Shown here: positions 2,417 through 55,947 of the stretch, one piece after another | How the letters are laid out: every line of letters starts with the position of its first letter | How positions within the stretch are numbered: position 1 is the first letter of the stretch | Notes under the pieces: model-generated | Told to the model about the DNA's origin: nothing | Seen by the model: the letters and a program-made list of their open reading frames with translations, nothing else | Databases searched by the model: none | Virus record (IMG/VR): IMGVR_UViG_3300027742_000011 | Length of the DNA stretch: 64,000 nt | From: a virus | Strand: one strand, 5' to 3' | Position numbers and translations under genes: made by a program

Positions 2417-4294
2417 TTATTTAAGTAGTTTTGGGTTCTTATGACCCGCCGATTTTTTACTTGCTAATCTGGCTCCAGCTTCTCTATTATAAGCTTTACG
2501 ATCTAGATCTTTAGATTTATTATAGTGATCTGTCTTCTTCTTATCATATTTCCACCATCTTTCACTTTTTCTGTTATGGATGTTTTCACCCGCTTTGGCG
2601 TCGTCGTATACTCTCGACTTCTCTATGTGTTTGTCACTTTTCTTATGGTTTTTTTTAGCAGATTTCTCTGCCTTTTCGCTATAAGATTTTAAAGTATCAT
2701 CTGACAATTCACTTAAATAGTTCTCTAACCTAACAACACCGCTTTGAAATGCAACTTCTATATATTCATCATTTTCAGAAAGAATGTTACCGAAACCGTA
2801 TTCGACGTGTTCAATAATATCTTCACCCTGAAGATTAAAATTTTCATGCATGCGTGTTTGAATGCGTGTGATACGGGTTTCATGTGGGTGCTCGTGATAT
2901 TTCAAAACGTTCGCTGCCAATTTAGTACCCATATGCTTGAGATGGTAAGCATGATTAGTGTCATTGCCGCCATGACCTTGTAAGCCATCATATGAATAAG
3001 ATCCACCAATATTATTATGGAATTGAACATGGGCGCTATGTTTAGATACTGTAGCAGTATGATAGCGACCAGTATCTGGTTCAAATTTGCCATGAACAGA
3101 ATTGTGGTCAGTCTCACCGATTTTATTATAGCCATGATCCGCCAAACTTTTTCCTATATGTTTGGCGAATGCTTTTTTAGTTTCTTTACGATACTTTTCT
3201 TGTTTGCCATGATCCGCTTTTGCTTCATCTGCCGCCATTTTTCTCCAATCATTGTGAACATAAACATCGAAATGACCAGCGTGTTCTTTTTTCACATCAC
3301 GATGTGAAGGTCTATAGTGTTCGCCACCCTTCTGATATTTTGAGGCATGTGGATTATTCTTACCTAAGCGACCCTTAAGCAATATTCTTTCATGTGGTGC
3401 TTTGTTTTTCTTAAGGTCTGCCAACTTCTTTTCAGATTTAGCATCGCCTGGTTTGTGAGTAAATCGGTATGCTGATGTTCTTTCAGTAGTAGACTCTTCT
3501 AAGTCTTCAATCTCTTCCTTTTGGAAGTCGTCGACTTCGCCTTGTGCATCAGGAGATGAGTCCATGCCCGATTTAGCAGCCTTAGGTACGTATGCACCGA
3601 GTTTATTTTTAGAGAGTTCTGTCATGAGATTGTGGCGAGTAGTATAACCTCTACCTTCCCAAAGAACATCAACCCAACCCTCTTCAAGAGATTCGATTGT
3701 GCCTATAGCAAGGGATCGGTCGATTAATTGATCACCGACTTTAAAATCTTCTTCATTCATTTTATCTACGGCTTTTTCAATACCCATTTGTCTGTTTGTT
3801 ACTTTCTTAAGAGCCTTTTTAATCTTTTCATTATTCATACCCTCTTTAGAATTATAGTTCTTCTGGATAGTATTATGAAAATCTACAGATTTAGAACCAC
3901 GGTCCATCGCAGCTTTCTTAATGTATGAAGCATGTGTCTTTTTAGAGAGTTCATCAATCTGTTGTTGCTCATCAATCTCTGTTTCTTCAGTCTTTATTGT
4001 AGATCTTCCAGCCTTCTTAATATATTTTAAATAATTTTTTCTGCTCTGTTCGCGATTATTACTGGAAGGATCGTTTGCAAATGCTCTAGCAGCTTTTGGA
4101 TCAATAGGAAGACTCTCTTCACCCTTCTTAGCTACATAAAGATCTTTCTTGAATTTATTCTCATCATTGCGCTCGTCGAGCTCGACTTCTTTCTTACCTT
4201 TAACATCTTTAGTCTTCTCATCGCCATCTTGGTAAGAACAATCATCGGCTTTCTTTTTTTCCAATAACGATCTGATTTTATCATTTAAATCCAT
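2417..4294 (-). CDS. Large Lys/Glu-rich modular late protein (possible internal head protein)
   Basis: 625 aa with repeated E-L-S-x3-L-x2-Y-x2-K-A modules; AATAAATA box and AAGGAG upstream. Confidence 0.7.
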   Translation of the reverse strand: MDLNDKIRSLLEKKKADDCSYQDGDEKTKDVKGKKEVELDERNDENKFKKDLYVAKKGEESLPIDPKAARAFANDPSSNNREQSRKNYLKYIKKAGRSTIKTEETEIDEQQQIDELSKKTHASYIKKAAMDRGSKSVDFHNTIQKNYNSKEGMNNEKIKKALKKVTNRQMGIEKAVDKMNEEDFKVGDQLIDRSLAIGTIESLEEGWVDVLWEGRGYTTRHNLMTELSKNKLGAYVPKAAKSGMDSSPDAQGEVDDFQKEEIEDLEESTTERTSAYRFTHKPGDAKSEKKLADLKKNKAPHERILLKGRLGKNNPHASKYQKGGEHYRPSHRDVKKEHAGHFDVYVHNDWRKMAADEAKADHGKQEKYRKETKKAFAKHIGKSLADHGYNKIGETDHNSVHGKFEPDTGRYHTATVSKHSAHVQFHNNIGGSYSYDGLQGHGGNDTNHAYHLKHMGTKLAANVLKYHEHPHETRITRIQTRMHENFNLQGEDIIEHVEYGFGNILSENDEYIEVAFQSGVVRLENYLSELSDDTLKSYSEKAEKSAKKNHKKSDKHIEKSRVYDDAKAGENIHNRKSERWWKYDKKKTDHYNKSKDLDRKAYNREAGARLASKKSAGHKNPKLLK

Positions 4295-28726: not shown

Positions 28727-28757
28727 AAAAAAAGGGCCCAGGCATAAAGCCCGAGCC
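28727..28757 (-). terminator. Intrinsic terminator
   Basis: GGCTCGGGC-TTTAT-GCCTGGGCC then C and T7. Confidence 0.8.
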
Positions 28758-28794
28758 TGAGTCTTAGGGAGAAGTGAGTAATTTAACCCATTAC

Positions 28795-29445
28795 TCAGTG
28801 GGATGCGAGAAACTCTTTAACTGATTCAATCGTCTTCTTAACAATCTCATCATCTTCGGGTAAATAGACGAAGCCGTAACCATTTGCTGATTTAAAGTTA
28901 TCAATGTTCTTATAGTGGTCATCAATAAGAAAGGCTTTGTCATGGGCAAGAATGGCTTTATCTCTACCTGAAGTGGTAGTGCAAAATGGAACATCAATCA
29001 ATGATGGGAAATGCTTCTCGATAAAGCGTGATTTTTGATCACGAACTGTAGAAATTGGCCGATAAAAATATCCAGTAGAAGTCAGAATTGCAATATTAAT
29101 TAGGCCTTGTTCTTTAAGATCATTTAAAGATGCTACAAGCAGCTTCGAATTGATCACCGTTTTCTGGTCTTCAAACATATTCTGTTTGACATAATCAGGT
29201 AGATATTCATTAAACAATTGTGACTTTGATACTAAATGCTCTTCTAATCTTGAAGTATTGATACCATAAAGATTAAACATACCTCTGTCCATGTCGGCAA
29301 TCACACCGTCCATGTCGAGATACACAATAGGTAAATTTAGTTTACTTTGTTTCATATTAATTCCATAGTGCTCCATAATATTTGGCGAAAAGCTGTAGAC
29401 CATTCTCTTTTCTTTTTCTATATTCTGACAGACCCACATCATCAA
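28795..29445 (-). CDS. HAD-family 5'(3')-deoxyribonucleotidase-like protein (true start may be near 29355)
   Basis: YLDMDGVIAD, ILTS, K, LIDDH. Confidence 0.85.
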   Translation of the reverse strand: MMMWVCQNIEKEKRMVYSFSPNIMEHYGINMKQSKLNLPIVYLDMDGVIADMDRGMFNLYGINTSRLEEHLVSKSQLFNEYLPDYVKQNMFEDQKTVINSKLLVASLNDLKEQGLINIAILTSTGYFYRPISTVRDQKSRFIEKHFPSLIDVPFCTTTSGRDKAILAHDKAFLIDDHYKNIDNFKSANGYGFVYLPEDDEIVKKTIESVKEFLASH

Positions 29446-34330: not shown

Positions 34331-34532
34331 CCTTATTCATTTTTGTTTTATTTTTTTCTATATCGTCAGGTGATAGTATAGACAATGCTGATCTAGCTTT
34401 TTCGATGTTATAGTTATAATATTCCATCACAAACTTTAGATTTTTATTATCATCTTTCTTCGCCCATTTACTAAACCTCTTACGAGGTCTAATGATATTT
34501 ATCAAATCATAATAATCCATCATAAACTTCAC
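34323..34532 (-). pseudogene. Duplicated 3' half of gp62
   Basis: IRPRKRFSKWAKK...EYYNYNIEKARSAL; 34382-34490 matches 34697-34805 with 7 mismatches in 109 bp. Confidence 0.8.
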
Positions 34533-34641: not shown

Positions 34642-35009
34642 CCGCCTCTATTCATCTTTTGCTTAATGTTTTCGAGATCACTTTCGTTCAATATCAACAA
34701 TGCTGATCTAGCTTTTTCGATGTTATAGTTATAATATTCCATCACAAGCTTTAGATTTTTATCGTCTGTCTTCTTCGCCCATTTACTAAACCTCTTACGA
34801 GGTCTGATTGAATTGATTAAATAATCATATTTGATATCGTCATCTAGATCGCTTAATAGATTGACTTCATTGGCGTACATTATAGTGTCAGGGAAATAGC
34901 TCAGGCCTCGATTGATCATAAAGCTGTTGTAATCTGACTTAAAATTGATTTCGTCTTTATTGTCCTTTTTGTTAAAGGTGATATTATTCAGAATATTCCA
35001 CAAACTCAT
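34638..35009 (-). CDS. gp62: Clamp loader small subunit gp62
   Basis: YNSFMINRGLSYFPDTIMYANEVN...IRPRKRFSKW. Confidence 0.92.
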   Translation of the reverse strand: MSLWNILNNITFNKKDNKDEINFKSDYNSFMINRGLSYFPDTIMYANEVNLLSDLDDDIKYDYLINSIRPRKRFSKWAKKTDDKNLKLVMEYYNYNIEKARSALLILNESDLENIKQKMNRGG

Positions 35010-37675: not shown

Positions 37676-38341
37676 TCAGCTTCCGTACGAAGAAGATGCC
37701 TCGACCGCGATATAATATTCTACAAGTGGTCCTTTAAAGTGTGAAAGACCTTTTGATGAGATTTCGACTTCATAATCACCTGGCAAGACTTTTAAGTGTT
37801 CCGCTTTAATAATCATTTGGAACTTGTCAGATGTTTCTGACTTACCAACCGCAACACTATATCTGTCGGCAGATGGGTTTTTACTATCGATAGCATCAAG
37901 AGTAATATTTTCTCCGTCGCCGACGATGGCCATTTCTGGTAGGCTTAGAACGTTCAATGCTTTCATAAAATCATTAAGCACTTCAGCTTCAAGCTTGAAA
38001 GAGATTTCCGGTGCTGGAAATTTAATGTCCTTTTGTGGAGGAACAATAATCGTATTTGGATCTGCGAAGGTGTAATTGATCCTGCGACGACCTTCCTTAA
38101 GTGTAAGGTTCTTGTCTCCAATCTCCACATCTGCATTTTCGAAGAGTGAAAGAGTAGACAAGAACCTTGATAAATCGTAAATTGCAAAGCTTGATGCAAT
38201 ATTGTGTTCAATAGTCGCTTTTGCCAAAATGGTTTTATTGGCTGAGATTGTTGAAAGGGTATTACCAGCTTGGAACATGATTCCATGGTTAATGCCCGAA
38301 TAGTTTTTCAAAATCTGTAGTGTTACATCATCAAATTTCAT
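37676..38341 (-). CDS. gp45: Sliding clamp gp45
   Basis: MKFDDVTLQILKNYSGIN...FAIYDLSRFLS...YYIAVE; ATGA-coupled start. Confidence 0.93.
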   Translation of the reverse strand: MKFDDVTLQILKNYSGINHGIMFQAGNTLSTISANKTILAKATIEHNIASSFAIYDLSRFLSTLSLFENADVEIGDKNLTLKEGRRRINYTFADPNTIIVPPQKDIKFPAPEISFKLEAEVLNDFMKALNVLSLPEMAIVGDGENITLDAIDSKNPSADRYSVAVGKSETSDKFQMIIKAEHLKVLPGDYEVEISSKGLSHFKGPLVEYYIAVEASSSYGS

Positions 38342-39765
38342 AATATTTTCCATTTCGTAGTTCCACAATTCCAATAACGTCTATATCCGTTATTGAACAT
38401 ATTTTGTGCTTCAGTTAATTCATTATTAAAGTGATCTAATAATTTATGTTGTTTATGTTTCTGGGCGGCAAGTCTATTTATCGTACCAATATCCTTTCTC
38501 CAATAATAATAACTTGGTGAGTTTACATGTTCTTCGCTAAAGCCACATTGAAGATATGATTTGCCATCAAACTTATCATTATCGGAATATGATATAAGAT
38601 TATCTGAATATGTCCTTAAAAAATGCTTTATCAATTTAGAGGTTCCTCCGACAACTGACGTATCCAATTTATGACACATTCTTATAAGTTCATATGTTTT
38701 ATCTTTTGTATATCTACTTATGCCAAATGTTGCAACAGACACAAGATTATTTTTATAAAAAAGACCAATTTTTATAGAGGAATTTGTATATCCTTTAAGG
38801 TGATTTTCATTAATAAATCCTCTAGCAATATTTGTGTCTAATTTTTTAATATCTGTATTTCGACCATATATTCTGATGTTTGATAATCCTAATCTACTTT
38901 TAATGATAGATTTTATAATATCTTGTTTTTCGTACCATTCATAGTCGGTAAAACTCAAAAACTTTAAACCCACATCTCTACATTTTTTATATTTTGTAAA
39001 GTGTTTGTTTTTTTCGTCTTGATCTTCTCTATAATTATATGAGTGCCAATAAATTCCATTAACTTCTATTGCCAAATCATTTACTAAAATGTCTATCTCT
39101 AAAGGAGGTATGCGAGTCCTATCATTCTGTTTAGTTTCAAGTCCTAATGATTCTACATAATCATTTACTTCTCTTTGGGGAGTTGATACATCATGTGAAG
39201 GAAATTCTAAATCAAATTCATTTATTCTTTGACACAAGAATGAATAACTTATTCCATATTCAGAGCAAATATCATATAACCTAGGTTTCTTTAATAATAA
39301 TTCTTCTACAAATGACTTATCACGAAAAAACTGTGTATTGTTATCGCGCTGCATTGGGTGGCCACCATTTGAATTCCAAGTATCTATTCTTTTTTGTATA
39401 GAAACACTAGACTTTGACGGGTGATCTACACCATATTTTTCCATGCAAGTCGATTTAATTTTTTCTTGAACGTTATTATCTAAAAATACATTTTTTACAC
39501 CATACTTTTTATATGATGTATTTTCTCTAGATTTTTCCATACAAGATCTATCACCACACGTCTTTAAATACCCTTTAATGAATGATTTAAAAATTTTTGG
39601 CTTTTCACAAAAACATTTCTGTATATCAAAATTGTTATGATAACAATAAGCAGCTTCTACAATGTTTTCTGTATTATATTTAGATGATAGTTTTTCTGTA
39701 AGTTTACTATCTTTTAATATAGCAGACTTTCTTATTGAACCATCACCTAAAATGGGAAGTTTCAT
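38338..39765 (-). CDS. Hef-like homing endonuclease (PD-(D/E)XK core plus C-terminal domain)
   Basis: KKYGVKN repeats, EIDILV..LAIEVNGIYWHS, NGYRRYWNCG. Confidence 0.8.
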   Translation of the reverse strand: MKLPILGDGSIRKSAILKDSKLTEKLSSKYNTENIVEAAYCYHNNFDIQKCFCEKPKIFKSFIKGYLKTCGDRSCMEKSRENTSYKKYGVKNVFLDNNVQEKIKSTCMEKYGVDHPSKSSVSIQKRIDTWNSNGGHPMQRDNNTQFFRDKSFVEELLLKKPRLYDICSEYGISYSFLCQRINEFDLEFPSHDVSTPQREVNDYVESLGLETKQNDRTRIPPLEIDILVNDLAIEVNGIYWHSYNYREDQDEKNKHFTKYKKCRDVGLKFLSFTDYEWYEKQDIIKSIIKSRLGLSNIRIYGRNTDIKKLDTNIARGFINENHLKGYTNSSIKIGLFYKNNLVSVATFGISRYTKDKTYELIRMCHKLDTSVVGGTSKLIKHFLRTYSDNLISYSDNDKFDGKSYLQCGFSEEHVNSPSYYYWRKDIGTINRLAAQKHKQHKLLDHFNNELTEAQNMFNNGYRRYWNCGTTKWKIL

Positions 39766-40873
39766 TTTTTCTTCTTCATGGTATTCATATCAACGGTTGC
39801 CGCTTGACCAATAGACGCTAAGTCCTTTAAGCTACCACCAAAGATATACATTCCAACGTGTTGTAGTTCCATCCAAGGGCAGAGCCACACTTTCATTCCT
39901 GCTTTACGTGTCCATTGGCAAAACATATAATCTTCACTTAAGTATCTATTCGAATCTTCACAAATCGGAGTATCAAAATACGCCATAATTTGTCTAGAAC
40001 CGTCAAAATGTTCTGTTCGCACGTGATCTGGCTTATAAAGTTGTTGTGGATATGCTTCTGCAAACTTTACAAAAGTATTTTTCCTAATCATCATAAACCC
40101 TGTTCCAGACTCTAGAACCTCTACTGGCTCGTCAATTCTGATCGTCTGTTTGCCGCCGGCTGGATTAAAGACATAATCACCTACAAACTTATCAAGAGTA
40201 TTTGGATCTTCATCCGCAACACCTTTATCTACAGCAGCCTTAATCTTTTCCCAAGAAATGCTTTTCTTAGGATATGGACCACAGATAACGTCATATTCAT
40301 CGTTGTCTGGGTTTTGATCTTGTAATGCTAATAGTGCAATTACGTCATTAGCATTAAAACCAATATCCGAATCGATAAACATCATATGAGTGCAGTCTGA
40401 TCTTATAAATTCATCCGCACAATAATTTCTAGCTCTAGTGATTAAACTTTCATTAAATAGAAAGTAGTGTTTAAGCTCAATTCCGTAGTGAGTGCAAAGT
40501 GTTGATAAATCTGCAATTGATCTAGTATACATTCCAGCACATTGTCCCAAAATATTCGTATTAATTCGCAAAATTAATACCGCATCAAATGCTGCTTTAT
40601 ATCACTATAAAGATTAGACTATATCTTCATCCTCTTTAAGAGGAGCTGGGCGCTTCGGAAAACATAAGCTTTTTTCCTACTCCTTTCGGATAGTCGTTGA
40701 ACCTTCTCTTTCGAGCTTGGCTGCTGATAATCTCTTTGAGACGTCCCAGCAATTCACCCAGTTATCATTTCTAAATTACTTTAGAATGAGGCAGATTTAC
40801 CATACATAGGGGTCGCAACCATCAATTTTCGTGTTTTTAGTGTTTCAATTGGTACATTAATGTTTACTGCCAT
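39762..40873 (-). CDS. GT-A-like glycosyltransferase, spliced (exon 1 40799-40873, exon 2 39762-40547; 286 aa)
   Basis: Joined reading VATPMYG|GQCAGMY; FIDSD (DxD), ESGTGFMMI, YLSEDY. Confidence 0.85.
40548..40798 (-). mobile_element. ORF-less group I intron, 251 nt
   Basis: Exon ends in U and intron ends in G; P AATTGCTGGGAC, Q TATCAGCAGCC, R GTTCAACGACTA, S AAGATATAGTCT; P7 GACTA/TAGTC; GNRA-capped P6, P8, P9. Confidence 0.92.
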
Positions 40874-40875
40874 AT

Positions 40876-41505
40876 TTATTTTCCTTTTCTGTTTTTACTA
40901 ATTAACATTTTTGTTTTGTTAGTATGTTTTTTCCCATAAAACGGATTATTTTTACCTGATTTATCGTAATTTCCGAATTTTGAATCCTTTGGTATTATTC
41001 TACCTTTATTCCAAGTTGAATATTTTTCATCAAAAACTTCTTTTGTAACTCTTTTATTTTTTAAGCCATCATTTATCCAAATTTTGTTTTTGTGATTACC
41101 ATCCGCCGAAAGAAAAGCTTCCAAGTGTTTTTTTCTATTTTCTTTACATAAAAATTGATTAGTTGCACTTTCTCTTAATTTTTCTTTTAGAGCATCATCC
41201 ATTATTATAGCAAAACCGCCAACAGATTTATTTAACCAAAAATCCCAATTGCCAGAATTATATAATTCTTTAAGATAATGGTGTTCATATTTAATGGCAT
41301 TCGTTATATTCTCAAATCTTTCATCTATAATAATCATGTCTGGCTCACCATTTTTATCTCTAAAATAATGAACATATTTAGATGATGTGAAATATTTTAT
41401 CCACAGATCATCTTCTGGTGCACATTCATTAGCATATCGAACACCATAATAATAAACATTAAATTTTGACCAGCCTATTATATATGTATACGCTTCGTTA
41501 TTCAT
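40876..41505 (-). CDS. Free-standing GIY-YIG (Seg-like) homing endonuclease with NUMOD3
   Basis: AYTYIIG...YYYGVR, YFTSS, GKNNPFYGKKHT. Confidence 0.82.
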   Translation of the reverse strand: MNNEAYTYIIGWSKFNVYYYGVRYANECAPEDDLWIKYFTSSKYVHYFRDKNGEPDMIIIDERFENITNAIKYEHHYLKELYNSGNWDFWLNKSVGGFAIIMDDALKEKLRESATNQFLCKENRKKHLEAFLSADGNHKNKIWINDGLKNKRVTKEVFDEKYSTWNKGRIIPKDSKFGNYDKSGKNNPFYGKKHTNKTKMLISKNRKGK

Positions 41506-41522
41506 TTTTATACTCCCATGTA

Positions 41523-41530
41523 TATTTATA
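41523..41530 (-). promoter_or_regulatory. T4-type late promoter of the GIY-YIG gene
   Basis: Exact TATAAATA. Confidence 0.75.
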
Positions 41531-41547
41531 CATAGAAGTATTTAAAG

Positions 41548-41619
41548 CTACATTGGGGTCGCAACCATCAATTTTCGTGTTTTTAGTGTTTCAATTGGTA
41601 CATTAATATTTACTGCCAT
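41548..41619 (-). pseudogene. Truncated copy of glycosyltransferase exon 1
   Basis: MAVNINVPIETLKTRKLMVATPM*; 41550-41619 matches 40804-40873 with 2 mismatches in 70 bp. Confidence 0.88.
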
Positions 41620-41669: not shown

Positions 41670-43277
41670 ATGAAGAATTTTATTCAAGAAAATTGTATGA
41701 CAAAGACTGGCAGAATTGGTTTCAATAACAGATGCCATAATAGTATTTGGTGGGAAAATAAGAATTTTCATAATCAACTCAATAAAATTGTATCTCTGAC
41801 ATCATTTTTGAAAGATGCGTCTTCAACAGTGCCACAAAGATGTTGGCATATTCTCAATGATATTTATATAACTCCTACATGTAAGAATAATAAATGTAAT
41901 GAAAATACAAATTTTAAATCTTTCTCTAAAGGTTATTATAACTATTGTAGTAAGAAATGTTCTTCACAATGTGAAGAACGCAATAAAAAAATAGTTAATA
42001 ATACTAATCATGCAGAGATGGTTAAAAATCTTAAGAGGTCAAATTTAGAAAGATATGATGTAGAATATAGTTTTCAGAGAAAAGACGTAAAGAATAAATC
42101 AAAAAAGACTAAACTTAAAAAATATGGTGATAGTAATTATTGTAATTTTGAAAAGGCAAAGAAAACTAACATTAAAAAATATGGCTCTGAGTTTTATTTT
42201 TCATCAGATATCGGTAAAGGTGTGTTAGAAAAGATGCGAATTCAAAATAATGGTTCTTTAAAATTAGATAAGGCTACAAACACCCTTTTAAATGATATTA
42301 ATTATCTTAAAGAAATGAATAAGAATTTAAATATTGATGAGATAGCTGATGAACTAAACGTGACTAGAACAGGTCTCAAAAATATTTTAGTAAAAAATGA
42401 TATAGAATTAAAGAAACATAAAAGAAAAACTAAGCTACATACTCAGGAAGAAATTTATGATTACTGTAAACATCTTACTGATAAAGTTGTGTGGAATGAT
42501 AGGAAAGCAATTAATCCAAAAGAATTAGACATCTATTTCCCAGATCATAGCGTTGCTATAGAATTAAATGGTTTATATTGGCATTCATATAATTATATAG
42601 AAAATTCTGAAGAGAAGATGAAACATTATGCAAAATATCAAGAGTGTAAAGACAAAGGAATTAGATTAATACAATTAACAGACCGTGACTGGTCGAATAA
42701 GAAAGATATATGCAAAGGAATAATTGCTAATTCGGTTGGAGTATGTAGTGAAAAAATTAGAGCCTCTAAATGTGTAATTCGAAAAATGAATACAAAGGAA
42801 GCTAAGGAATTTCTAAATGATAATCATATACAAGGGTATTCAGCATCATCAATAAAACTGGGTCTTTATTATAAAGAAACCTTAGTTTATATCATGACAT
42901 TTTCTAAACCAAGATTCAGTGTTAAATATGATTATGAGCTCATTAGATGTTGTTCTAAATTAAACACAAAAGTATATGGTGCAGCATCTAAGATATTAAA
43001 ATATTTCAATAAAAATTCTATCATTAGTTATTGTGATATATCAAAATTTGAAGGTAAATTATATGAGAGTCTTGGTTTTGAATATAGTCACGCATCTAAA
43101 CCAAATTATTTCTACTTTAAGAAAGATGTAATTATTCCAAGATATAAGGCTCAAAAAGCCAACCTTCATAAAATTCTTGATGTTTTCGATTCAAATAAAA
43201 CAGAAGCTGAAAACATGTTCATTAACAATTATAGAAGATATTGGGATTGTGGGAACAGTGTGTTTATTCTGGAATAG
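41670..43277 (+). CDS. Hef-like homing endonuclease, antisense
   Basis: ELDIYFPD..AIELNGLYWHS, NNYRRYWDCG. Confidence 0.8.
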   Translation: MKNFIQENCMTKTGRIGFNNRCHNSIWWENKNFHNQLNKIVSLTSFLKDASSTVPQRCWHILNDIYITPTCKNNKCNENTNFKSFSKGYYNYCSKKCSSQCEERNKKIVNNTNHAEMVKNLKRSNLERYDVEYSFQRKDVKNKSKKTKLKKYGDSNYCNFEKAKKTNIKKYGSEFYFSSDIGKGVLEKMRIQNNGSLKLDKATNTLLNDINYLKEMNKNLNIDEIADELNVTRTGLKNILVKNDIELKKHKRKTKLHTQEEIYDYCKHLTDKVVWNDRKAINPKELDIYFPDHSVAIELNGLYWHSYNYIENSEEKMKHYAKYQECKDKGIRLIQLTDRDWSNKKDICKGIIANSVGVCSEKIRASKCVIRKMNTKEAKEFLNDNHIQGYSASSIKLGLYYKETLVYIMTFSKPRFSVKYDYELIRCCSKLNTKVYGAASKILKYFNKNSIISYCDISKFEGKLYESLGFEYSHASKPNYFYFKKDVIIPRYKAQKANLHKILDVFDSNKTEAENMFINNYRRYWDCGNSVFILE

Positions 43278-53402: not shown

Positions 53403-53492
53403 CTATGTGGCCATCCTACTAAAGTTGGAATGTTTTTCAAATTTAATTACAGAGTGAAATTTATCGTACATAGTGTCCCCGTTCCAATTCAT
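53403..53492 (-). pseudogene. Orphan copy of the gp46 C-terminus
   Basis: GDTMYDKFHSVIKFEKHSNFSRMAT* versus gp46 GAQLHDKFHSLIKFEKHKNFSKMVN. Confidence 0.8.
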
Positions 53493-53498
53493 CAAATT

Positions 53499-53514
53499 AA
53501 TAAATATATTTATA
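53499..53514. promoter_or_regulatory. Back-to-back late boxes
   Basis: AATAAATA on + (53499-53506) and TATAAATA on - (53507-53514). Confidence 0.55.
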
Positions 53515-53528
53515 CTTGGAGATTTCAT

Positions 53529-54236
53529 ATGCAATACATTCCTTATACTTATCTTATTGGTTGGTCTAAATTAAACAAATATTATTATGGTTGCGAATAT
53601 GGAAATATTGTTAAAGTAGCAAACCCATCTAATCTCTGGACATCATATTTTACATCTTCAAAAATAGTTCAAAAATATAGAATGAAATATGGTGAGCCCG
53701 ATATTATTCAGATTCGTAAAACATTTTGTTGTGCTAAATCCACAAAAACATGGGAAGAAACTGTTCTAAGAAAAATGAAAGTTCTTACCAATGATATGTT
53801 TCTTAACGAGAATATTTCTGGTTTAGAATTTGGTCTAACTTCAAAGAGATTTTCTGGAAGAAAACATACCAAAAAATCTAACGAAAAAAATAGACAATCA
53901 CAACTTGGTCGAAAGCATTCAAATGAAACCAAAAGAAAAATATCTGAAGGTAATAAGAATAAAATTATATCTAAAGAAGTAAAAGCTAAAATATCAAAAG
54001 CTAATTCTGGAAGAAAAATGTCTGAAGAATTTTGTAAAAAAAGATCAGAATATACTACTGGTAAAAATAATCCAAAGTATGACCCTACATTATATGATTT
54101 TGTACATCCAATTTATGGTAAATTAAGATGTACAAAATATTATCTGAAGACCGAATATGGAGCAACTAATATACAGAGAGTTATTAAAGGAGATCCTAAA
54201 TACTCTCATTCTGCTGGATGGAAGGTAAGTCATTAA
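53529..54236 (+). CDS. GIY-YIG (Seg-like) homing endonuclease with NUMOD3 repeats, antisense
   Basis: PYTYLIG...YYYGCE, YFTSS, GRKHSNETKRKIS; GGAG SD. Confidence 0.82.
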   Translation: MQYIPYTYLIGWSKLNKYYYGCEYGNIVKVANPSNLWTSYFTSSKIVQKYRMKYGEPDIIQIRKTFCCAKSTKTWEETVLRKMKVLTNDMFLNENISGLEFGLTSKRFSGRKHTKKSNEKNRQSQLGRKHSNETKRKISEGNKNKIISKEVKAKISKANSGRKMSEEFCKKRSEYTTGKNNPKYDPTLYDFVHPIYGKLRCTKYYLKTEYGATNIQRVIKGDPKYSHSAGWKVSH

Positions 54237-55947
54237 CCATTTTACTAAAATTCTTATGCTTTTCGAATTTAATTAGTGAATGAAATTTGTCGTGTAATTG
54301 AGCACCCTTATGGGAGATGACGAATACATTTGTATCTACTGTAAGTGACTCGAGAATTTTCAGAAATTCTTCTGTACCATTACCATCTAGAGAGCTATCA
54401 AACACTTCATCCATGATAAGGAGATTTGTAGATGTCGAATTTCTAAGTTTAGCGATTGCTCTCCATGTAAACATTAAAGCAAGGTCAATTCTCATCTTTT
54501 CCCCTTCGGAGAAAGATGCATATGTGAATTCGTCTCTAAATCTTGATCTAATTGTTTCTGAGAATTTTTCATCCATCTCGAAATTAACGAAGAAGTCCAT
54601 CGAAGCGAGGTACTTGTTTACGAGCTTATTAATGATGGGTATATATTGTCTTATGATATGAGTTTTGATTCCGCCATCTTTAAGGAGAGCCGCGGAAATA
54701 TCAAACAATTCTTTACTGTCTATCAATTCGTATTTATAATCAATTTTCGCTTTCTTGTCTTTTTTTAGCTTATTGATTTCAGTTGAATTCAAATCAATTT
54801 GTGTAGTATTGTTCTGAATATCTTCAATCTCTTTTTCAAGCGTGGTAATGTTTCTCTGATAAACGCGAATCTCACCCATATTATCTCTAATATCACTCTG
54901 GAGTTTATTAATCCTGTCGTGAGTAGTATTAATCTCTAGAAGTCGACCATTTGCCTTCTTATACTCATCTTCTAATTTAAGAAGAGCTTTTTCAGTATCT
55001 TGGAGTTGTTCTTCTCTATCATGGAGTCTTTCTGTTTTAAACTCAGCATCAATATCCTGTTTACACGTAGGGCAACTATCGTGCTTCTCGAAGAAGCCGA
55101 TTTCCTTTTTAATGTTCTTAACTTTTGACTCGATAGTGTTTTCTAATTGAACAATCTTATCGAGCCGCGAATTTGCTTTATTTTGATCAGAAATAGACTC
55201 AAGTAAAACATCAACATCAACTGATAATTTTCTAACATTCTTATCGAATTCTTCAATATCGGCCACAGTCTTATCGATCATTCTTTTCTTGCGATCAATA
55301 ATCTCGTCGTTATTAGTCATGAGAGACTTAACATGCTTCTCATTCAGTACAATTTTCTGTTCTACCATTTCAATTTCATAATCAGCAGACTGCATATCCA
55401 TTCTATTTTGAGATACTTTTTCTTTAAGTAACAAATTCATGATAGAGAATATTTGAATATCCAGCAAGTCTTCAATAACTAAACGCCTATCACCAGTAGG
55501 AAGCTGCATAAACGGTCGATAATCTGCTGACCCTAGAACAACAATCTGTCTCATAGAGCGGTCTGACATTTTTAAAATAGTCTTCTCGAGCATCTCTTGG
55601 TATTCACGAATATCAGAATTCTGATTGATTAGTTGATCGCTCTGATATACTTCGAATATATTCGGTTTCATGCCGCGCCTCACCATATATTTCTTTTTAC
55701 CAATTGAGAACTCTACTTCTACAAGTAAGTTTTTCTGTGTAATAGAGTTCACTAATTGGGGTTTGTTGATGTTGCGAAATGCTTTACCAAACAGCGCGTA
55801 AAATAAAGCATCAAGCACGGTAGATTTACCTGCGCCGTTCGTGCCAATTATCAACGTCGATTTTGATCTATTTAAATCTATTTCGGTAAATTGATTGCCA
55901 GTGGATAAGAAATTCTGCCATCTAAGTTTTTCAAAGATGAGCTGCAT
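54196..55947 (-). CDS. gp46: Recombination endonuclease ATPase subunit gp46 (Rad50/SbcC-like)
   Basis: GTNGAGKS, CPTC hook, FSEGE, MDEVFD, SH. Confidence 0.95.
   Translation of the reverse strand: MQLIFEKLRWQNFLSTGNQFTEIDLNRSKSTLIIGTNGAGKSTVLDALFYALFGKAFRNINKPQLVNSITQKNLLVEVEFSIGKKKYMVRRGMKPNIFEVYQSDQLINQNSDIREYQEMLEKTILKMSDRSMRQIVVLGSADYRPFMQLPTGDRRLVIEDLLDIQIFSIMNLLLKEKVSQNRMDMQSADYEIEMVEQKIVLNEKHVKSLMTNNDEIIDRKKRMIDKTVADIEEFDKNVRKLSVDVDVLLESISDQNKANSRLDKIVQLENTIESKVKNIKKEIGFFEKHDSCPTCKQDIDAEFKTERLHDREEQLQDTEKALLKLEDEYKKANGRLLEINTTHDRINKLQSDIRDNMGEIRVYQRNITTLEKEIEDIQNNTTQIDLNSTEINKLKKDKKAKIDYKYELIDSKELFDISAALLKDGGIKTHIIRQYIPIINKLVNKYLASMDFFVNFEMDEKFSETIRSRFRDEFTYASFSEGEKMRIDLALMFTWRAIAKLRNSTSTNLLIMDEVFDSSLDGNGTEEFLKILESLTVDTNVFVISHKGAQLHDKFHSLIKFEKHKNFSKMVNDLPSIQQNESI

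Follow-up and report, generated by a model that had tools for sequence, protein, structure and literature searches.

We have analyzed a locus within a 64,000-nucleotide (nt) stretch of viral DNA, IMGVR_UViG_3300027742_000011, in which a group I intron, a free-standing homing endonuclease gene and a partial duplicate of the interrupted gene lie side by side. The whole stretch is termed the window, and positions refer to it unless a relative is named. The phage is T4-like, and the features of the locus are on the minus strand except where marked. Read along that strand, they follow in the order dead exon 1, leader, GIY-YIG/NUMOD3 endonuclease gene, live exon 1, group I intron and exon 2. We think it moderately likely that the region arose by a collaborative-type homing event in which homology repair took place on one side only, and that the dead exon is the former start of the resident gene.

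The dead copy of exon 1 (41549-41619) comprises 71 nt of homology. Its sequence is ATGGCAGTAAAT...CCAATGTA, followed by a G that completes a TAG codon (41550-41548) at which the frame is halted; i.e., the copy ends ATG TAG. Next comes the leader of the endonuclease cassette (41506-41548), 43 nt in length, which contains the late-promoter motif TATAAATA and a hairpin. The endonuclease gene (40876-41505) encodes 209 amino acids (aa). The live exon 1 (40799-40873) has 25 codons, MAVNINVPIETLKTRKLMVATPMYG, and ends ATG TAT GGT; its ribosome-binding site, AAGGAA, sits inside the final codons of the endonuclease gene. The intron (40548-40798) is 251 nt in length, belongs to RF00028 and lacks an endonuclease open reading frame (ORF). 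Exon 2 of the target gene (39762-40547) is an open frame corresponding to phrog_1574. Counted from ATG through ATGTA, the dead and live copies are identical at 69 of 71 nt, and their two differences (AAT/AAC and CCA/CCT) are both synonymous. The spacing of the direct repeats is 746 nt, as given by a repeat search. An earlier reading made from the sequence only had described the same bracketing of the GIY-YIG gene, with 68 matches in 70 positions and with these two ends; the count was essentially right, and both ends are confirmed.

Is the duplication real? The window is metagenomic, and the 53 identical nt in the repeats break short-word graphs, such that strains with and without the endonuclease gene might have been merged in assembly. 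We examined the unitigs of one public DNA run, possibly from the source sample. Separate unitigs cover exon 2-intron-live exon 1, live exon 1-endonuclease-dead exon 1 and dead exon 1-upstream, and one of them, 753 nt in length, connects live exon 1 with the dead copy by way of the endonuclease gene. The read depth in this run is equal over the three unique parts, being 35.1 for exon 2, 35.3 for the endonuclease gene and 35.4 for the flank. The same architecture is present in two relatives (L204 and L212) from separate samples. The junction-spanning unitigs and the equal depth indicate that the structure is real and that the endonuclease-bearing form is the main form, and we consider an artefact of assembly to be extremely improbable. 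No form carrying a 746-bp deletion was present among the contigs of the run; these contigs are unable to link both copies, so that its absence is unproven. Clean excision of the endonuclease gene by recombination between the repeats is plausible, and the intron-only relative L101 is in the state that such an excision would leave.

The endonuclease and its leader

The ORF of the endonuclease is full length (209 aa, compared with 208-220 aa in its relatives). The protein has a GIY-YIG domain at residues 3-97, a linker, a module HKNKIWINDGLKNKRV...WNKGRIIPKD and a C-terminal NUMOD3, the last detected in Pfam with 7.7e-6 and 26.2 bits against a cut-off of 20.4. The phrog_314 'homing endonuclease' profile also matches, and a profile built from the protein and its relatives matches, at the C-terminus, the I-TevI DNA-binding domain (1i3j). 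The protein has no direct match to either PF01541 (GIY-YIG) or PF19835 (SegE) in Pfam, and the GIY-YIG assignment is made instead on the fold and on the homologues, one of which (P0053) matches SegE_GIY-YIG PF19835.

The AlphaFold2 (AF2) model of the endonuclease has a pLDDT of 84. Comparison of residues 3-97 with the I-TevI catalytic domain using VIA-align gave Z = 8.7 for 1ln0_B, with a root-mean-square deviation (rmsd) of 2.7 Å for 85 of 94 residues, and Z = 8.4 for 1mk0; over the 1ln0 and 1mk0 structures the rmsd is 2.6-2.7 Å for 85-86 of ~95 residues. The GIY-YIG domain of UvrC gave Z = 4.9. Foldseek alone was weak for this fold (E 0.6). Residues Y8, Y19, Y20, G21, R23, E74 and N92 each show at least 90% conservation, up to full invariance, in 35 homologues, and we take the conserved positions to be the counterparts of R27, E75 and N90 of I-TevI. 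From its sequence and its model the protein looks like an intact and active GIY-YIG/NUMOD endonuclease, for which cleavage is predicted. Pattern scans with the endonuclease gave nothing in one case, and only 2-3 loci in viral and metagenome collections.

The leader appears to be organized for control of expression. The promoter motif TATAAATA lies at 41530-41523, within a predicted 14-bp hairpin at 41541-41510 (-15.6 kcal/mol), where it extends from the last part of the 5' arm across the loop into the first part of the 3' arm. The Shine-Dalgarno sequence GGGAG (41517-41513) is within the 3' arm. In I-TevI, segB and mobE of T4-type phages a late promoter is combined with a hairpin that hides the ribosome-binding site in read-through transcripts, whereas late transcripts begin inside the hairpin (PMC2988022). 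By the same logic the endonuclease would be translated from late transcripts only, since hiding of the ribosome-binding site would need sequence upstream of the late promoter. The placement of hairpin and promoter, as deduced from the predicted fold, fits such T4-type late-only control.

The same hairpin design occurs in the window and in seven related cassettes (L199, L200, L202, L208, L204 and L077 among them), and the leader of the window has homologues in L199 and in L202/L208. In the aligned stem 88.6% of cells pair, compared with at most 56% for a slid partner; two compensatory pairs were counted in the five sequences, a number that is not significant. All 13 exact matches to TATAAATA in the window are on the minus (main coding) strand, with 9.2 expected, so the count is not enriched.

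The 5' arm of the hairpin, CTATGTAT, resembles the target sequence CC[AT]ATGTAT. We considered this piece as a remnant of an old exon 1 and rejected it; it is the arm that pairs with the ribosome-binding site, and this pairing may account for part of its resemblance to the target. Target-like pieces are found upstream of every cassette, most of the match being likewise forced by hairpin and promoter. Might such a piece serve as an operator, bound and left uncut by the endonuclease, in the manner of I-TevI self-repression? The I-TevI operator has 15/20 identity to the homing site and overlaps the late promoter (PMC2988022). In L014 a 20-mer with ~15-16 of 20 matches to the intron-less target is found 10 nt upstream of TATAAATA, and CC[AT]ATGTAT overlaps TATAAATA in five cassettes. 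Against this, the arm is constrained anyway by its pairing with the ribosome-binding site and by the promoter, so that the match involves ~4 free positions and could be due to chance, and the location of the target-like piece relative to the promoter varies among lineages. We regard an operator function as possible but doubtful. It would concern the short remnants rather than the 71-nt copy, and is compatible with every explanation of the duplication discussed below.

One related cassette (L077) encodes an HNH endonuclease next to a standard intron-less target. Its leader (L077 3407-3485) is homologous to that of the GIY-YIG cassette of L204 (1075-1146), with the common pattern TATAAATA ... 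ACCATCGCGG.C.GCAA..CCCATGGTCTCTA, and homology extends to the C-terminal module of the two proteins, HK.K.W.N......R....GR. It seems that endonuclease families occupying one site have exchanged promoter-leader, nuclease and DNA-binding modules.

The intron and its host gene

When the segment 40400-41000 was scanned alone, RF00028 matched with 84.3 bits (E 4.9e-22) over the full model (1-253); the curated threshold is 50 bits. The intron was not reported when Rfam scans covered the whole window, whether the cut-off was the gathering threshold or E 0.001. This is a filter effect, and introns elsewhere in such windows may go unreported for the same reason. A search for the core motifs revealed no second group I intron in the window. 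The 251 nt contain stops in all frames, the sole ORF being a TTG frame of 38 codons. The bases at the splice sites are those expected for a group I intron, with U before the 5' site (exon 1 ending GGT) and G at the 3' end (TTTTG). Homologous introns occupy the identical site in L204, L199, L014 and L101, scoring 88-101 bits.

The position of the junction is given by the relatives that lack the intron. Exon 1 (23-26 codons) abuts exon 2 exactly at the predicted junction in 79 of 80 IMG/VR loci, and these 79 intron-less relatives fix it at ...ATGTATGGT/GGNCARTG, encoding PMYG/GQC, where the slash marks the insertion site; were the junction moved by one base, the codons would still give Gly-Gly. 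All 79 alleles encode PMYGG without exception. On this sequence evidence the window contains a group I intron, whose removal would restore the conserved frame, and self-splicing is predicted.

The host gene is conserved and has 286 codons. Its exon 2 matches phrog_1574 with 1.3e-58 over profile positions 22-239. The protein had no match in Pfam, nor in a sequence search of solved structures (PDB). One phage record names a homologue as a putative glycosyltransferase, and part of the Atlas neighbours of the protein carry Glycos_transf_2 or Anp1, which is taken as a lead only. The target is probably a GT-A-type nucleotide-sugar transferase with a DSD motif, an assignment that should be read as a lead rather than a result. 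In the relatives the gene is directly upstream of the genes for the gp45 sliding clamp and the clamp loader.

Related loci and the origin of the duplicated exon

The sequence-only reading had called for a comparison with relatives, and this reveals every state of the locus. Nearly all loci are empty, with neither intron nor endonuclease gene, and L101 has the intron only. Endonuclease and intron without a long duplicate are present in L199 (enzyme 54% identical), L014 (30%), L209-211 (37%) and L257, and an endonuclease without an intron in L200/L201 (57%) and in L202 and L208 (50-52%). Endonuclease, intron and duplicated exon 1 occur together in the window and in L204, as well as in L212, which is 98% identical to L204 and comes from another sample. 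None of the relatives has the endonuclease gene inside the intron, and the suggestion that the structure is an intermediate towards a composite mobile intron is supported neither way.

Intron and endonuclease are associated across the relatives. Among 117 distinct loci found via the target gene the intron is present in three, two of which have the endonuclease directly upstream, compared with 2 of the 114 intron-less loci (Fisher p 0.0026, on small counts). When the search was made via the enzyme, the intron was present in 5 of 8 endonuclease lineages. In the window itself, an intron without an endonuclease ORF and a free-standing endonuclease gene lie beside the same gene. In L202 and L208, which have the enzyme and no intron, PMYGG has become PMYAG with further residue changes, while 79 of 79 others keep PMYGG, and two of the three endonuclease-plus, intron-less lineages have an unusual target sequence.

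The most informative relative is L204. In its dead copy, exon 1 continues directly into exon 2 for 9 nt, CCAATGTATGGC GGAATGTGT, after which the cassette begins. The source of this copy, in which the intron site is uninterrupted, is therefore an intron-less allele. The dead and live copies of L204 differ in eight codons, and all eight differences are synonymous, for which we estimate a probability of ~0.25^8 under random decay. The copies have thus diverged under selection, as working genes in different genomes. L204 can also be compared with an empty-site relative, L214. Positions 7-1044 of L204 are collinear with 1472-2509 of L214, with 91.8% identity over 1038 nt, and the alignment stops exactly at +9; it resumes at exon 2 with 89.9% identity, and the L214 protein is 98% identical. 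Of 69 positions compared, 6 separate exon 1 of L214 from the dead copy of L204 and 10 separate it from the live copy. Collinearity that ends at a break and resumes by homology is the signature of one-sided repair, and this is what is seen for L204 against L214.

The comparison indicates that 1,180 nt, comprising leader, endonuclease gene, foreign exon 1 and intron, were added to the intron-less gene resident in L204, and that the first 78 nt of this gene were displaced. It further indicates that the endonuclease gene, the foreign exon 1 and the intron arrived together. The sequence-only reading had proposed that the enzyme inserted about 5 nt from the intron site and regenerated the start of the gene. 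Proximity to the site is upheld by the window, which has the same layout as L204 with a dead copy that stops 4 nt before the intron site (-4); insertion of the endonuclease gene by itself is made improbable by the L204/L214 pair. The part of the gene retained upstream of the cassette in L202/L208 is no more than its first 13-15 nt, and the left junction falls within an 8-nt sequence, TTAAAATA, common to exon 1 and to the left end of the cassette as found in L199. This junction could be a microhomology join or the result of a later deletion between 8-nt repeats.

Could both copies instead have originated within one genome? In that case the cassette would have landed in or upstream of the gene, and a local duplication, by slippage or unequal recombination, would have restored the start. 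A very recent duplication fits the window equally well, where the copies differ at 2 of 71 nt. It does not fit L204, where the eight differing codons are all synonymous, the dead copy has an intron-less junction that the live copy lacks, and the empty-site L214 is closer to the dead copy than to the live one. We therefore judge such a local origin to be improbable, and give as little credence to the idea that the dead copy is a decaying paralogue rather than the allele of another phage.

How might one-sided homing have generated the arrangement? The donor phage would have carried a unit of late promoter and hairpin leader, GIY-YIG gene, exon 1, ORF-less intron and exon 2, and the resident phage an uninterrupted transferase gene. 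The cut by the endonuclease would have fallen in the resident gene, no more than a few nt from the PMYG/GQC-coding site, the site of intron insertion. On the exon 2 side, homology with the donor would have allowed repair of the break, with the copied tract extending over the intron, the donor exon 1 and the endonuclease gene. What lies upstream of the target gene varies among these phages, with genes for MazG, vWA, DUF3310, methylase-like proteins or other endonucleases, and because of these differences an endonuclease gene upstream of exon 1 will often have no left homology in a new genome. With an upstream region that is non-syntenic, the 5' side would be closed by an illegitimate join, in which the broken end of the resident exon 1, kept to ATGTA, was fused to the cassette at its left edge. 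What had been exon 1 of the resident would persist as the dead copy, with the imported exon 1, intron and exon 2 making up the working gene. In experiments with T4, intron homing with one exon missing was closed illegitimately, with microhomology junctions (Parker et al., 1999, as summarized in PMC2988022). Illegitimate closure on the 5' side gives exactly the observed order of resident exon 1, cassette, donor exon 1, intron and exon 2.

The carrier would be immune because the intron splits the long recognition site of the endonuclease. The break can be placed near the intron site from where the dead copies stop, 4 nt before it in the window (-4) and 9 nt after it in L204 (+9), and collaborative homing requires such proximity. 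As the dead copy of L204 is intact to +9, we infer that the enzyme must need sequence beyond that point, which fits the long bipartite sites of I-TevI type. The sequence-only description of the locus as a collaborative-homing unit gains indirect support from the association of intron and endonuclease, from dead ends near the intron site and from the unusual targets of two of the three endonuclease-plus, intron-less lineages; its cleavage component is a prediction.

A number of observations weigh against this account. The variant target of L200 is also present in a sister that lacks the endonuclease (L050, both having PMYGGSCTG), so that L200 is uninformative on immunity and divergence of the target is not always a response to the endonuclease. 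The HNH endonuclease of L077 lies beside a standard intron-less target. Identity between lineages is 73-81% for the intron and 67-81% for the exons, and with the intron barely above the exons a recent horizontal spread of the intron is not supported. No co-conversion tract is visible in exon 2 between L204 and L214, and no empty-site relative was found for the window itself. With only two differences between the window copies a recent duplication within the genome fits too, so that the argument leans on L204. Lastly, the junction on the cassette side is at a near-identical place in three lineages, which would be unexpected for independent illegitimate events.

The recurrent junction bears on another explanation, in which the mobile element inherits the dead exon 1 and uses it as a portable left homology arm. 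Duplications are seen in the window, in L204/L212 and, as a shortened version, in L202/L208, and in all of these the cassette-side junction is just 5' of CT(T)AAAATA. A target-like piece is found upstream of every endonuclease gene of this locus (CCAATGTAAGGTGGTTAAAA in L014, ATGTATGGTAC in L209, GCAATGTAACC in L077 and the CC[AT]ATGTAT arms), and the region upstream of the target gene differs between phages. Yet the exon-side ends differ, lying at -4, at +9 and at nt 13-15 of the gene, and a long dead copy is lacking in L199, L200, L014 and L209. Between L050 and L200 the vWA gene is simply exchanged for the cassette, and the short CC[AT]ATGTAT arm is at least partly explained by pairing with the ribosome-binding site. 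We consider it unlikely that the dead exon is such an inherited part. It is likewise unlikely that the exon 1 of each recipient pairs with the dead copy while exon 2 pairs with exon 2, the duplication being recreated at each transfer. The more general notion that dead exon and short remnants are functional parts of an exon-bracketed cassette, with its own left arm and perhaps its own operator, we rate no higher. If it were true, such a cassette could home into any genome with the target gene, whatever its neighbors, and a portable arm would be a third solution to the need for flanking homology beside residence in an intron or an intein.

The replacement in L200 can be followed in some detail. 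The flanks of L200 3284-3947 and L050 3303-3920 are 91-93% identical, and the vWA-domain gene has been cleanly replaced by the cassette, from its start codon to ~10 nt before the start of the transferase gene. We considered AAGGAAATG in L200 as a dead gene start, and rejected it; it is the start of the vWA gene that was replaced.

Neighboring genes and relation to known systems

Two further endonuclease-like genes flank the locus. A 535-aa gene of phrog_3339 (41670-43277, plus strand) is divergent, and lies between a DUF3310-like gene and the dead exon 1. Its 475-aa paralogue (38338-39765, minus strand) lies between the target gene and gp45, its start overlapping the stop of the target gene. 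The two proteins are 36% identical and match DUF7487, with a weak Mom-like match. Neither gene was detected at the transferase locus of the 80 IMG/VR relatives searched (L001-L080). The pair, together with the GIY-YIG gene and the intron, constitutes a small local endonuclease island of which the 535-aa gene is the left edge. In L214 ~610 nt (3281-3891) separate the transferase gene from gp45, compared with 42 nt in L204 (3005-3047), and this variable slot is the one filled by the 475-aa gene in the window.

Gene ends are repeated at two other places in the window. An antisense gene for a 268-aa phrog_314 endonuclease (53430-54236) is flanked by direct repeats of the 3' end of gp46 (SbcC-like), at 53411-53467 and 54237-54293, each 57 nt in length and 79% identical. 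This is the same pattern of gene end, endonuclease gene and gene end as at the transferase gene, but older. A repeat in the clamp-loader gene gp62, next to regA (34377-34514 and 34692-34829), is 138 nt in length and 88% identical, with no intact endonuclease gene between the copies. We count these diverged gene-end repeats near endonuclease genes as support for the duplicated exon as a scar of homing. Elsewhere, the SorX small RNA model matches 28730-28804 (minus strand) with 33 bits (E 4e-4), below the threshold of 46.6, probably by chance.

Several elements of our interpretation are already known, namely collaborative homing, one-sided illegitimate homing, late-only control by a hairpin and partial gene duplication in organelles. 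Collaborative homing has been described for the free-standing F-CphI and the ORF-less psbA intron of cyanophage S-PM2, and for the DNA polymerase cases of T3/T7-like phages (Zeng et al., 2009; Bonocora and Shub, 2009, as presented in the reviews PMC2988022, PMC3984707 and PMC10448857). As in those systems, the inferred target here is the site of intron insertion and the intron is the presumed source of immunity. In contrast to them, the endonuclease gene is upstream, in a former coding region, and bracketed by a duplicated exon 1; the enzyme is GIY-YIG/NUMOD3 rather than Endo VII-like or HNH, and its target is a transferase gene next to gp45.

The one-sided homing of T4, in the account given by PMC2988022 of Parker et al. 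(1999), likewise had homology on one side of the break, the other side being resected and joined at little or no homology, and offered a route for such elements into new contexts. It was performed in engineered plasmid-phage crosses, whereas the present case is a natural genome with a scar of the resident exon and a free-standing endonuclease. The T4 Seg endonucleases (SegF, SegG and SegB, with intron-less homing) and I-TevI also have a GIY-YIG domain with NUMOD-type modules, lie beside or between conserved genes and, as described for I-TevI, segB and mobE, have a late promoter with a hairpin hiding the ribosome-binding site (PMC2988022). Coupling to an intron and duplication of an exon have not been described for the seg genes. 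Phage homing endonuclease gene (HEG) islands similarly place several endonuclease genes around one conserved gene (Barth, Dunham and Seed, 2023, PMC10448857). In the present island a single 286-codon gene has three endonuclease-type genes and an intron around it, and one junction keeps the scar of the event.

In the partial atp6 and cob duplications of fungal mitochondria (PMC6279837), too, an endonuclease gene carries a piece of its target, and the resident end is displaced as a partial duplicate. Those cases differ in being organellar, in usually involving the 3' end of the gene and in having no paired ORF-less intron. Allomyces atp6 is a further case of gene-end duplication beside an endonuclease gene. 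We found no description in the literature of this combination in a natural phage genome, of the new host gene, of a nucleotide-level comparison of filled and empty sites or of a series of decay states.

The origin and movement of collaborative-homing pairs have been stated to be an open question (PMC10448857), and such homing is known from a handful of phages. The locus and its relatives provide a natural series, from the empty site to fresh and decayed exon duplications, in which the filled and empty pair L204/L214 fixes the insertion junction to the nucleotide. The transferase gene beside gp45, which is probably related to DNA modification, is a new host gene for phage group I introns. On the reading that we favor, of homing with repair by homology on one side, the series shows that lack of upstream homology need not keep a free-standing endonuclease gene out of a genome, as the gene can bring a replacement gene start and the protective intron with it. 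The displaced gene start marks the position of the break, and leads to testable predictions of the cleavage site. One-sided homing may also account for the repeated and since diverged gene ends near other endonuclease genes of this genome.

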